This document shows positions 24,865 through 28,328 of a DNA stretch of 64,000 nucleotides, piece by piece; position 1 is the first letter of the stretch; each line of letters starts with the position of its first letter. The DNA lies in the IMG/VR virus record IMGVR_UViG_3300031669_005479, positions 64,001 through 128,000 of that record; one strand, written 5' to 3'. Below the pieces are notes generated by a model. It was not told the origin of the DNA and made no database searches. It saw nothing but the letters and a program-made list of their open reading frames with translations. The position numbers and the translations under genes are program-made. The stretch is from a virus. Taxonomy: Duplodnaviria; Caudoviricetes.

Positions 24865-24899
24865 AAAAACCCCACAAGAAATTTTCTTGTGGGGTTTTT
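24865..24899. terminator. Intrinsic terminator downstream of the tRNA
   Basis: 16-bp stem AAAAACCCCACAAGAA/TTCTTGTGGGGTTTTT. Confidence 0.85.
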
Positions 24900-25036
24900 A
24901 TATTAATTTAAATCTTATAAACTAAATCTATCTTGTTTACGTGCTTTTCTTCGAAGTTCATTTACTTCACGAAGTGCATTAGGATTAAATCTTTCACGCC
25001 TAACCACACTAACAAGATGATTAAATTCATTTTCAG

Positions 25037-25122
25037 TAGCGGGAGAGAAAGTCGAATTCTCACTTGCATTAGATGTCTCAAGGTTATGAGCCTTGCGTGT
25101 TAGCCATTTACACCATCCCGCA
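25037..25122 (-). tRNA. tRNA with CAU anticodon (Met/fMet-like), atypical, no encoded CCA
   Basis: TGCGGGA TG GTGT AAATGGCTA ACAC G CAAGG CTCATAA CCTTG AGACATCTAATGCAAGT GAGAA TTCGACT TTCTC TCCCGCT A: acceptor, D, anticodon and T stems all pair. Confidence 0.88.
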
Positions 25123-25175
25123 ATATATTTTTTAAACCATTTTCTTCTTTTAATGAACGTTGTCCTAGGACGATA

Positions 25176-25206
25176 CAAACATACAATACATTTTTTAAAT
25201 ATGCAA
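25176..25206 (-). promoter_or_regulatory. Bacteroidota-type promoter of the tRNA
   Basis: TTG-N20-TATGTTTG about 55 nt upstream of the tRNA. Confidence 0.7.
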
Positions 25207-25253
25207 GCATTTTTTTAAAAAAAATGAAAAATTTTATATTCGGTCTTGGAATA

Positions 25254-25261
25254 ATAAATAC
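25254..25261 (-). promoter_or_regulatory. GTATTTAT putative late promoter (tRNA unit)
   Basis: Intergenic; context TCTTCGTATTTAT identical to that at 15276. Confidence 0.6.
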
Positions 25262-25301
25262 GAAGAAATTCTAAAAAAGTTACAATTTTTTATAAAAAAT
25301 A

Positions 25302-28300
25302 TTATTTATCTTTCATAACGTTCTGATGCATACGCAGTTTCTCAAGATTATCCTTTATGATTTTATTCTCACCATGCTCTTCATCGGGGTCAACCAATAA
25401 TAAATTTTCAATGTCTTCAGATGTAATTTTTTTATTAATCATCTCATGTAATGGTATCTTATGTGTTGGTTTTATGACATTTTGTGTTATATTATCATCC
25501 AAGTCTAATAATGACACATTCGCATCTACAGCAATTTCACCAATAGTATCATTCGCCACTACAATATCTTCAGACTCATCAATTTCAAGAATATTTTGAT
25601 TATTTTCATCAATGTTTTTAAAATTAGAATCATTCGCTTCTCGAATTTCAGTGTCGAAATTTTTATTCATTTCAATATTATTTACTGCACCAAACATTTC
25701 AGGTTCATTATTTCTTCGTATCAGTTCATTTAACGCTTGTGGATTTCTCATTATATCATTCTCGTGCATACTAATTGCTTCATGTATCTTAATATCAGAA
25801 GATTTTTCTTTCACATTGTTAGCATGCTCTTCGAATTTATTAATGTCATCATCCCCATAATGTTTTAACCCTTTATATGTTTTTGTATACCTATACCTTG
25901 GGTCATCAATAATTATCTGCATTTTATCATTATCAAATATACAATCTTCGAAAGACTGTCCATCTTTTGCAAATCTAGCCTTTATAATTCTAATATTTGC
26001 TAAACTTGCTTCCTGTTGTGCGGGTGTCTTAGCGACAGACATAAAGAAATGTGCTTTTTGAATTCTTTTAATGTTTCCACCAATCTGATGCGCTTCAACA
26101 AATTCTGCACCAAAACCCGAACGATTAGATTGTATTGCAGTCCAAGCAGGAATATCTAAGTCAGATGATAATGCTTCAAATGCTTTTATAATTGCAAGTT
26201 CTGCTTCATTTCTATCAGGAGATTTCTTATGGGATTCTAAACAATCGAGATAGTCAAGCACCAATATATCAAAATTAAATCCAAACTTTTTTTGATATCC
26301 AAGCATCCAGTTTTTTACATCCATCATGGTTGTATTTTCCTGACTGAACCTTTTTATGATTAACCTACCATTACCTTCTAAAGATTTTGCCTTTTCATGA
26401 ACAATTTTTGTAACCCTAGCATTTTCATCTTCATCGTCCAATTTACTTAGTGATGATTTTGACCAAATAGTATAGTGTTTACGTTTAATTTGATCTTTCG
26501 TATCCTCAAAAATAATTTGAGCAACATTTTTTTCGTCTTCATATGCAGTATTGGCAATTATAGTAAGTGCGGTAGTATTGTGCGTTAAAATATAATCATT
26601 AGTAACATATAAATGATCGTCATTTTCGACATAAATGCACTGTGCATCTTCATTATGAGAATAGGTTATCGATTGAATATATTTATTATACTTATATTTA
26701 TTTCTGTATATGACACGATTTTGCTTTCTAATTAGTTGAAATGGTTTAATACTTTCGTCCGAAAACGATAATGTTAATATATACGATAACTTACCAATAT
26801 TTATTTCATCATTATACTTATATTTGGGATATTTTTCTTTCATACTACAAAAGCCACCCAACGATAACACCAATTCTCTAACATCAAATGCCAACTGTTT
26901 TGATGTTGTAGTATATTGAACCCTACCAGTCTTAGAGGCAAATCCATCACTATCCATTAATCCCTGTAATAGCAATATTCTATTATCAATTGTATTATAT
27001 TTATAGTCACGAGGGATGAATTTGGTGTTAGATAATTTATCAAATAATTCATAATTAGTTAGATTTTTTCTACTTCCACACAATCTAACTCTATATACAT
27101 TATTTAATTTACGCTTATCCCTATTTATCGTTATATTGTCACTAAAATATTTTTTTACGTTATTAATGACATCAATGTCACACGTAGTAAATTCACAACT
27201 TTTCATATAGCCATCACCAAGCATAATACCCATAATATATGGATGGATTTCCACGTCCTTTAATAAAAATTGTACTGGAGAAATGATAGGTATTCTATAA
27301 TTTAATTTTTTTGATTTTTTACCATATATGATGTAATCTTTCATGATCTCATCAAGAGTCATTGTTTTATATGTATTATCTGGAACTTTTATGTGTTTTA
27401 TTTTGCCATTAATATTATGTGTAGTATTTGCAGTTCGCTGATTTAAAGAATTTACTGCCCATAAATGTTCTCTATCACACATCGCTGACGTACCATCATT
27501 AAATTTTACGTTATATATCTCCCTGATACCTTGTGGATATACACCTAAAACTCGTTGTGATTTTCCATCGCTTCCTATAACACTATCATTAATTTTTATT
27601 TCCCCATTTTTAATCCACCCATTTGGAGTTAATACTGGTGCAGACATTGGTAATGATTTACCAACACCTGAAGGGGTTAGTATCACACCTATTTCACCTT
27701 TACCAAGACCACCACCAGTTAATGAGTCAATTACACCAATACCTGTTGCTATTGGTTGTCTAAACTCTTTACGGAGTGCCTTGTCTATTCCATCAGTAAC
27801 TTCTTCGCAATCATCCTCAATTTCACCAATACGTGCAATTTTTTGAAATCTATCGTCTATTGCCGTAATAACATACTTACTTCTAATATCACCATTCTTA
27901 ACACTATCAATAATAGATTCTGCCAACTTGCGATACTCTTGCTGCTTAATGAAATTATTTGTCGATTTTTGAACAACATCTCCATCGTAAAGCATTTGCT
28001 TATTAATAACCCTTTCGTTCCAAAGTTCAATTCGTTTTACAACTGCAAATAATGACTCTTCCTCAATAACATTATTTGGGGATTTGTATCTATTAATTGC
28101 TTGATGAATACTTTGATTTTGAAGATTGGGAACCTTTTGAAATTCTTTATAATATTCTAAAATAATTATAAATAGTCTTCTAAGATTCGGGTCATCGAAA
28201 TACTCTATTGCTAAATCAAGAATAATTTTTTCCGAAAATTCTGGTTCAACCAACAACTGCCACATAAGACGTTGCTGAAATTCTGGACCTAGATATGCTG

Positions 28301-28328
28301 ATAATGTATGCTCTGTAGTTTCTGCCAT
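25302..28328 (-). CDS. dnaB: DnaB-like replicative helicase with intein and an acidic C-terminal extension
   Basis: TGIGVIDSLTGGGLGKGE, split Walker A PSGVGK|TT, LVLDYLDCL, WTAIQSNR, IIKARF. Confidence 0.92.
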   Translation of the reverse strand: MAETTEHTLSAYLGPEFQQRLMWQLLVEPEFSEKIILDLAIEYFDDPNLRRLFIIILEYYKEFQKVPNLQNQSIHQAINRYKSPNNVIEEESLFAVVKRIELWNERVINKQMLYDGDVVQKSTNNFIKQQEYRKLAESIIDSVKNGDIRSKYVITAIDDRFQKIARIGEIEDDCEEVTDGIDKALRKEFRQPIATGIGVIDSLTGGGLGKGEIGVILTPSGVGKSLPMSAPVLTPNGWIKNGEIKINDSVIGSDGKSQRVLGVYPQGIREIYNVKFNDGTSAMCDREHLWAVNSLNQRTANTTHNINGKIKHIKVPDNTYKTMTLDEIMKDYIIYGKKSKKLNYRIPIISPVQFLLKDVEIHPYIMGIMLGDGYMKSCEFTTCDIDVINNVKKYFSDNITINRDKRKLNNVYRVRLCGSRKNLTNYELFDKLSNTKFIPRDYKYNTIDNRILLLQGLMDSDGFASKTGRVQYTTTSKQLAFDVRELVLSLGGFCSMKEKYPKYKYNDEINIGKLSYILTLSFSDESIKPFQLIRKQNRVIYRNKYKYNKYIQSITYSHNEDAQCIYVENDDHLYVTNDYILTHNTTALTIIANTAYEDEKNVAQIIFEDTKDQIKRKHYTIWSKSSLSKLDDEDENARVTKIVHEKAKSLEGNGRLIIKRFSQENTTMMDVKNWMLGYQKKFGFNFDILVLDYLDCLESHKKSPDRNEAELAIIKAFEALSSDLDIPAWTAIQSNRSGFGAEFVEAHQIGGNIKRIQKAHFFMSVAKTPAQQEASLANIRIIKARFAKDGQSFEDCIFDNDKMQIIIDDPRYRYTKTYKGLKHYGDDDINKFEEHANNVKEKSSDIKIHEAISMHENDIMRNPQALNELIRRNNEPEMFGAVNNIEMNKNFDTEIREANDSNFKNIDENNQNILEIDESEDIVVANDTIGEIAVDANVSLLDLDDNITQNVIKPTHKIPLHEMINKKITSEDIENLLLVDPDEEHGENKIIKDNLEKLRMHQNVMKDK
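26577..27656 (-). mobile_element. Intein (360 aa) with LAGLIDADG homing endonuclease in the helicase P-loop
   Basis: Starts SLPMSAPVLTPNGW, ends YVTNDYILTHN|T; MGIMLGDG and LLQGLMDSDG; class 3 W/C/T residues. Confidence 0.93.

Follow-up and report, generated by a model that had tools for sequence, protein, structure and literature searches.

A phage tRNA(CAU) with a long variable arm and mainly initiator-type features belongs to a widespread family

Background

To our knowledge, every initiator tRNA that has been characterized belongs to class I. The DNA analyzed here, a window of 64,000 nucleotides (bases 64001-128000 of a 202,814-bp IMG/VR virus record that has 30% G+C and is approximately 66% complete), contains a tRNA gene in which a CAU anticodon is combined with a long variable region. 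In reviews, long variable arms are assigned only to tRNAs for Ser, Leu, and Tyr (and Sec) (PMC7609411). The locus raises the question of what this tRNA does, and of what its arm contributes. An earlier note, made from the sequence without database searches, had proposed a hybrid of initiator and elongator tRNAs, a variant that resists anticodon nucleases, or a decoy.

Results and discussion

An 86-nucleotide tRNA(CAU) gene

A single tRNA is found in the window by ARAGORN, namely a tRNA-Met(cat) at 25036-25122 on the minus strand, and the full Rfam model RF00005 (positions 1-71) matches 25037-25122 with 50.3 bits, compared with a gathering score of 29. Both programs call a tRNA(CAU), as the earlier note had expected, and direct reading of the sequence together with these two programs bears out every detail of the 86-nucleotide cloverleaf drawn there. 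Its parts are as follows.

25037-25122, minus strand: tRNA(CAU), 86 nt; found by ARAGORN, by Rfam, and by family covariance model R1 (91 bits), with covariation in 36-38 relatives
25122-25116 with 25044-25038, minus strand: acceptor stem UGCGGGA/UCCCGCU, with U1·U72
25113-25097, minus strand: D arm; D stem GUGU/ACAC, 4 pairs
25095-25079, minus strand: anticodon arm; stem CAAGG/CCUUG, loop CUCAUAA
25088-25086, minus strand: anticodon CAU
25062-25078, minus strand: variable region AGACAUCUAAUGCAAGU, 17 nt, made of a mini-hairpin and a 3' tail CAAGU
25075-25073 (CAU) with 25069-25067 (AUG), minus strand: mini-hairpin of the variable region, loop CUA
25061-25045, minus strand: T arm; T stem GAGAA/UUCUC, giving A53-U61
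25037, minus strand: discriminator A73; CCA is not encoded

The acceptor and T stems have the canonical 7/5 architecture, not the 8/4 or 9/3 of allo-tRNAs. The anticodon stem supplies A29-U41, G30-C40, and G31-C39, and the gene therefore has two G-C pairs in place of the three consecutive ones at 29-31:39-41 that are an initiator trait. With more than 10 nt and a stem-loop, the variable region is of the class II kind, but the anticodon is not one for Leu, Ser, or Tyr, and the discriminator is not the G73 of Ser. Ser and Tyr identities were rejected on the basis of A73 and CAU.

Identical copies of the tRNA occur in contigs of two further soil metagenomes and in one wastewater contig. A search of E. 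coli genomes with the window tRNA by using blastn gave no match, and minimum-free-energy folds of single sequences do not reliably recover the cloverleaf or the arm. The A53-U61 pair, which stands in place of G53-C61, is present in the window copy alone among 36 family members; the tRNA carrying it is identical in three metagenomes.

A family of long-arm CAU tRNAs in phages

Among 50,697 GenBank phages, the only DNA-level match was to the tRNA itself, in the Bacteroides phages PhiCrAssBcn22 and 23. The homologue in these phages is an 85-nt tRNA(CAU) at the end of a tRNA cluster; compared with the window tRNA, it has C1×A72 and three T-stem pairs that are changed on both sides, and its anticodon arm is the same. 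When three divergent family members were searched against the GenBank phages, each recovered the crAss001 group or nothing. Within that group, crAss001 t23 (MH675552 5721-5807) is a long-arm homologue annotated as tRNA-Met, and the homologue in Kehishuvirus 'tikkala' carries the public annotation tRNA-fMet.

Pattern searches of metagenome contigs were more productive. An exact 22-mer consisting of the anticodon arm plus AGACA (CAAGG-CUCAUAA-CCUUG-AGACA) matched 20 viral contigs, 15 of which have the long form, and 14 cellular contigs, 12 of which have short CPR-type initiator tRNAs. One cellular contig (L039) has a short, 75-nt G×A form that resembles one on a viral contig (L028). Another, of 410 kb (L043), carries the long form and is also listed as viral in IMG/VR; apart from this contig, the one exact 22-mer scan found no long form on cellular contigs. 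A degenerate pattern revealed 52 ARAGORN-validated loci on viral contigs, with approximately 38 distinct sequences of 85-89 nt. Finally, an arm-blind pattern, in which the D arm and the anticodon loop region are fixed and the variable region is free, is found in at least 117 contigs and reveals both 4-nt-loop and 17-20-nt-arm forms of one lineage.

Family members are found on gut, soil, wastewater, and aquatic phage contigs. Because the scans recover so many long-arm CAU relatives, the window gene is not an isolated curiosity but part of a family that is widespread in phages. The earlier note had called the gene atypical unless such tRNAs turned out to be common in its phage group, as they do. 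A search of the literature did not reveal any report of phage Met or initiator tRNAs with a long arm, and the public records that annotate the crAss001-group gene leave its arm without comment. In annotation pipelines, such genes are either labeled simply tRNA-Met or, as in the window, masked by an ORF call.

Covariation and conserved features of the cloverleaf

Covariation was assessed in an alignment of 36 distinct members, and a second alignment of 38 members gave a similar result. In the 36 members, 94.1% of pair cells hold standard pairs, compared with 75.7% for shuffled data; two-sided changes occur in 16 pairs, and covariation extends to every one of the five T-stem pairs. Covariation of this strength in the cloverleaf speaks against a decaying pseudogene, an outcome that the earlier note had left room for, and it also disfavors the decoy. 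The positions that discriminate between initiator and elongator tRNAs are distributed as follows among the 36 members.

1:72, initiator-type: unpaired in 31, U-A or A-U in the rest, never G-C
2:71, initiator-type: G-C in 35
3:70, initiator-type: C-G in 27, U-G in 9
30:40, initiator-type: G-C in 36
31:39, initiator-type: G-C in 35
29:41, variable: A-U in 25, G-C in 7, U-A in 4
11:24, elongator-type: U-A in 36

An unpaired 1:72 followed by pairs 2:71 and 3:70 is the mark for formylation, and G30-C40 is the essential one of the three anticodon-stem G-C pairs, of which au/GC/GC is a natural variant (PMC5389676). The window tRNA has U1·U72, G2-C71, and C3-G70, and thus the determinants for formyltransferase are present. 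All three anticodon-stem G-C pairs occur in only seven of the 36 relatives, and pairs 27-29 vary freely in the family, unlike the near-fixed G30-C40 and G31-C39. The anticodon loop CUCAUAA is invariant in all 36. The invariant U11-A24 counts against a plain initiator reading, as bacterial initiators typically have a purine at 11 and a pyrimidine at 24 (A11-U24). In the window copy, the loss of one of the three G-C pairs and the A53-U61 pair also count against it.

Three CAU tRNAs of E. coli MG1655 (metY, metT, and ileX) served as references. With its arm removed, the window tRNA is 59.7% identical to metY, 45.8% to metT, and 43.7% to ileX, and two other family members reach 70-71% identity to metY. 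The family model R1 scores metY, its best E. coli match, at 58.7 bits and ileX at 39.2 bits; neither metT nor metU is listed at E ≤ 1. In E. coli metY/metZWV, the CAU anticodon, the loop CUCAUAA, the unpaired 1:72, and acceptor positions 2-6 (GCGGG) are the same as in the window tRNA, and metY shares G30-C40, G31-C39, A73, and a variable region that starts with AGA. The window tRNA departs from metY in several respects: its variable region has 17 nt and a hairpin, compared with 5 nt in metY; its 11:24 pair is U-A where metY has A-U; and its 1:72 position is U·U where metY has C×A. It also has A29-U41 and A53-U61, and it lacks an encoded CCA.

The A-U/G-C/G-C anticodon stem is also present in the natural au/GC/GC initiators of some mycoplasmas and alpha-proteobacteria (PMC5389676), and short CPR initiators (L030-L042) have the exact 22-mer in common with the window tRNA. 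Unlike the window tRNA, the initiators of both these groups are cellular, 72-75 nt long, and equipped with a 4-nt variable loop and A11-U24.

The term hybrid, as used in the earlier note, is apt for the anatomy, in which an initiator acceptor stem and anticodon-stem bottom accompany an elongator U11-A24, but by R1 scores and identities the tRNA as a whole groups with initiators. Judged by its sequence, then, the window gene is an initiator-type tRNA with one elongator-like trait and a foreign arm. We consider it probable that it is a functional phage initiator-type tRNA-Met gene built on a class-II-like body.

A proposed route from transcript to initiation, and competing identities

If the gene functions as a source of initiator tRNA, it would be transcribed from its own candidate promoter into a precursor of approximately 300 nt that ends at an inherited terminator. 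RNase P and 3' nucleases would trim this precursor, and CCA would be added by an enzyme of the host or of the phage, which encodes one of the CCA-adding type (PF01743, 79.6 bits). Host MetRS would charge the tRNA with Met, reading the CAU anticodon and A73, and host formyltransferase would then formylate it, 1:72 being unpaired. IF2 would deliver the product to the 30S P site, where G30-C40 would allow it to pass the IF3 checkpoint. In the 203-kb record, which is approximately 66% complete, no Formyl_trans_N, Pep_deformylase, or MetRS core domain was found that might hint at a private pathway of the phage.

A mismatch at 1:72 weakens the use of a tRNA by EF-Tu. The mismatch is found throughout the family, and this is one of several reasons that an elongator or dual-use tRNA-Met that reads internal AUG codons appears unlikely. 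This possibility is raised by U11-A24, which is the elongator state, and by the window copy having only two of the G-C pairs. However, G30-C40 is invariant and G31-C39 nearly so, R1 favors metY and leaves metT unlisted, and the phage already has a second CAU tRNA (G000:186383-186454) that, with 69% identity to metT, can be classed as elongator-like.

Many phage tRNAs with a CAU anticodon are tRNA-Ile2, in which C34 would be converted to lysidine by host TilS so that AUA is read. AUA is expected to be common in an AT-rich genome such as this one, with its 30% G+C, and some of the family's loci also contain long-arm CAU tRNAs whose loop is CUCAUAU and whose 1:72 is paired. Yet neither an unpaired 1:72 nor a GG/CC stem is an Ile2 trait, and the window tRNA agrees with metY in having G-C at pairs 4:69 and 5:68, where positions 4 and 5 of ileX are C. 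With ileX also well behind metY both in identity and in R1 score, an Ile2 identity for the window gene is very unlikely.

The CAU anticodon is the dominant determinant for MetRS, and this argues against a switch of identity in which the long arm would lead LeuRS (through A73 and the arm) or SerRS to mischarge the tRNA and AUG would be recoded. The long arm, A73, and an A15/U48-type core would suit such a switch, and allo-tRNAs demonstrate that recoding of this kind exists (PMC5389517). Like the class II tRNAs for Leu, Ser, and Tyr and like allo-tRNAs, the window tRNA has a variable region of more than 10 nt with a hairpin, but it differs from them in its CAU anticodon, 4-pair D stem, much shorter arm stem (2-3 pairs), and 7/5 architecture. 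Because SerRS, moreover, requires G73 (PMC7609411), we regard mischarging as scarcely credible.

Alternately, the RNA might have no part in translation and might instead mimic initiator tRNA and so draw off, as a decoy or sponge, a host toxin or sensor directed at initiator tRNA. The window gene sits apart from the main tRNA cluster as a stand-alone unit, and family members co-occur with canonical phage initiators, both of which would be compatible with mimicry. All elements that charging, formylation, and use in the P site require are conserved, A73 and the anticodon loop among them, which speaks for translation, although a good mimic would also need much of that conservation. On balance, there is little probability that the tRNA is such a mimic.

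The variable arm

The variable region measures 17 nt in the window tRNA and 17-20 nt in its relatives, and its inner hairpin has three pairs in the window tRNA and up to five in crAss001. Among the 36 aligned members, the first pair of this hairpin is always C-G. The middle pair is A-U in 33, U-A in two, and C-G in one, and is G-C in a further relative (L134). The third pair is U-A in 16, G-U in five, and unpaired in 15. In the crAss001-type arm, CAGU-AAU-ACUG is replaced by CGGU-AAU-ACCG in one locus (L193), which is a compensatory change. A CWWGU tail is conserved 3' of the hairpin. The CAU/AUG mini-stem that the earlier note had considered possible is thus real, though short, and is accompanied by compensatory changes in relatives.

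The first alignment permitted two mutually exclusive arm stems, each with one covarying pair. The outer stem, ACAK/WWGU, was rejected once the arm-blind search had revealed C-G, G-C, and U-A swaps in the inner hairpin. The pattern of substitutions indicates that the small hairpin in the extra arm is under selection. Also, the arm sequence is more conserved than a mere hairpin requires, which suggests that the arm contacts a specific partner.

The crAss001 t23 and 'tikkala' homologues are of the same lineage as the window tRNA, and have the GUGU D stem, C×A at 1:72, the GG/CC stem bottom, and a long arm with a hairpin. They differ in having a different 20-nt arm sequence with a 4-5-pair stem, and a gene position at the end of a tRNA cluster, whereas the window gene stands alone.

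These comparisons bear on the possibility that the gene is an ordinary spare initiator whose arm is a functionless insertion, tolerated since its acquisition by descent or gene transfer. The same lineage of D arm and anticodon arm does occur with a 4-nt variable loop (AGUU or AAUU), and the arm hairpin is short and weak in minimum-free-energy folds, as an idle insertion might be. However, the length of the arm (17-18 nt) and much of its sequence have been kept despite complete turnover of the T stem, the hairpin has compensatory changes, and the crAss001 group has kept a different long arm. A tolerated insertion therefore seems rather unlikely.

Possible roles of a distinguishable initiator

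At least 10 loci contain a canonical short initiator-like tRNA in addition to the long-arm one, and the two are adjacent in several. The short companions have A11, a mismatched or weak 1:72, and the GG/CC stem bottom. Because so many phages have the short form beside the long one, the latter may do something other than plain initiation. In four further loci, a second, unrelated long-arm initiator-like tRNA(CAU) lies near the family member.

L064:187-277: second long-arm kind, adjacent to the family member
L082:1579-1669: second long-arm kind, adjacent to the family member
L087:2512-2597: second long-arm kind, adjacent to the family member
L010:5587-5674: second long-arm kind, near the family member

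Three of these four have an A11-type D stem, and their variable arms are different, with a firm 5-pair stem in L010. As this second kind is unrelated to the family, long arms on initiator-like tRNAs arose more than once.

Perhaps the 17-nt arm makes the phage initiator physically distinguishable from that of the host, so that it would continue to function if ordinary initiator tRNA were inactivated by a factor of the host or perhaps of the phage. That the arm serves to evade defense or to discriminate between phage and host initiators is a guess. Host toxins that cut initiator tRNA exist, and it has been proposed that phage tRNAs evade host tRNases through changes in the anticodon loop (van den Berg et al., PMC10264068). 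Those phage tRNAs and the window tRNA are alike in being phage copies of a tRNA known to be attacked by VapC and other host toxins. They differ in that the former have changes in the anticodon loop, whereas in the latter the loop is canonical and invariant and the body is altered. Because the loop is the unchanged CUCAUAA, any evasion of nucleases, as the earlier note had proposed, would have to act through the tRNA body.

A broader form of this idea is that many phages keep a private initiator, and that the arm is a handle for a factor that tells phage from host initiator, either shielding the tRNA from a defense or shut-off activity or recruiting a phage factor. We offer this only as a tentative possibility. 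If phages do keep a private initiator, their translation initiation would be uncoupled from the host's initiator pool, and the arm would be part of a wider swapping of arms that in this genome extends to the tRNAs for Gln, Glu, Lys, Trp, and Leu. Should the arm protect against tRNA-targeting defense, it would represent a new route of counter-defense that uses the tRNA body and not the anticodon loop, and also a naturally orthogonal initiator scaffold.

The conservation of an arm-bearing initiator-type tRNA implies that MetRS, formyltransferase, IF2, IF3, and the P site probably tolerate the arm, and the spread of such tRNAs suggests that phages benefit from it. Because both crAss001 and its host have been cultured, the question can be tested directly.

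Other tRNAs in this phage and its relatives

Of the 18 other tRNAs in the record, five are either class I tRNAs that carry an arm or Leu tRNAs that lack one. The main tRNA cluster lies outside the window, at G000:178821-193243, and has several isoacceptors in two body types, with lengths of 86 and 74 nt for Gln-UUG, 85 and 73 nt for Glu-UUC, 88 and 76 nt for Leu-UAG, and 88 and 74 nt for Lys (UUU and CUU). The same cluster has an 84-nt Trp tRNA and short Leu-UAA and Leu-CAA tRNAs.

Long (at least 82 nt) class I tRNAs are frequent in the related loci and comprise 11 distinct sequences for Asn-GUU, nine for Thr, four for Trp, three for His, and three for Cys; these counts come from 764 tRNAs in loci picked for their CAU tRNAs and are not prevalences. 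Long-arm CAU tRNAs in which the loop is CUCAUAU and 1:72 is paired as C-G or U·G are found at L069:3797-3879, L088:7706-7791, and L115:2855-2937, and probably form a separate, Ile2-like class. The only widely shared cluster of neighboring ORFs, present in 22 loci, is of the zinc-finger/Vsr-like homing-endonuclease type and offers no clue to the function of the tRNA.

Transcription unit and flanking sequences

The tRNA gene is located downstream of a gene for a DnaB-like helicase, and this synteny is common to three relatives (L083, L090, and L098), in which the 5' flank of the tRNA is also conserved. The flanking features in the window are as follows.

25236-25300, minus strand: AT-rich intergenic element of approximately 60 nt, directly after the helicase stop codon; conserved with L098
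25176-25206, minus strand: candidate promoter TTGCAT-N-TATGTTTG, of the form TTG ... TAnnTTTG, proposed from its position in the 179-nt gap downstream of the helicase gene, and from alignment with L090
25123-25175, minus strand: presumed 5' leader of the precursor, with a palindrome GTCCTAGGAC; the 9 nt immediately 5' of the tRNA, of the AAAUAUAU type, are conserved
24915-25178, minus strand: 87-codon ORF over the tRNA, a chimera of leader, tRNA, and gene relic; not a gene
24915-25036, minus strand: relic of an ARPP-1 gene, comprising its last 41 codons and stop; 85% amino acid identity to the end of an L098 ORF by tblastx
24865-24899, minus strand: intrinsic terminator, a 16-pair stem and a T run

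The candidate promoter aligns with TTG...TATATTTG in L090. The TANNTTTG motif is not enriched in the window (112 found versus 119 expected), and a sigma-70 scan of the window gave hits at chance level. The host-type promoter that the earlier note had assigned to the tRNA is therefore plausible by position and alignment, but its motif is no commoner than chance.

The late motif placed at 25254 in that note falls within the conserved element at 25236-25300. Many soil metagenome contigs pile up on this element, with a summed depth of 180-334 versus approximately 3.5 alongside, and a partial second copy lies at G000:35631-35658. The element may be a phage promoter or some other regulatory site.

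Downstream of the tRNA, the window and L098 diverge. In L098, where a tRNA-Lys(UUU) precedes the CAU tRNA, approximately 4.35 kb after the tRNA (L098:9763-14241) encode an AntA/KilAC protein, a 544-amino acid protein, and a 365-amino acid ARPP-1 protein (L098:13144-14241, matching PF20208). The window lacks this block between tRNA and terminator, but its relic corresponds to the end of the ARPP-1 ORF, from which it differs chiefly at third codon positions and by synonymous changes. The relic (40 amino acids) has no Pfam match. Comparison of the two loci indicates that the block was lost in the window lineage, leaving the last 41 ARPP-1 codons, which are now the 3' trailer of the presumed tRNA transcript. 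The join is at a TAC-type microhomology a few bases from the 3' end of the tRNA. It was considered whether the junction is an assembly artefact, and this was rejected because contigs from two other soil studies span tRNA and relic with zero differences. The wastewater contig has the identical tRNA between different flanks.

Terminator-type sites number three, versus 0.3 expected, and the one at 24865-24899 has a homologue in the hairpin that follows the ARPP-1 gene of L098, with which its stem covaries. Because relic, stop codon, and terminator all match the end of that gene, the 87-codon ORF is chimeric, and the terminator was inherited from the deleted gene. The strong terminator that had been attributed to the tRNA is thus real but not originally its own, and the ORF that had been dismissed as spurious is indeed not a gene, except that its 3' third derives from one.

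Two further observations concern the vicinity of the tRNA. A two-codon mini-ORF (AUG-GUU-UAA) at 25132-25140 in the leader, which L090 lacks, probably arose by chance in AT-rich sequence. The L098 orthologue of the helicase has 672 amino acids and is without an intein-type insert; the helicase gene in the window (25302-28328) has an insert of approximately 336 amino acids with Hint and LAGLIDADG domains in the P-loop region (approximately 26541-27641), which is an intein with a homing endonuclease.
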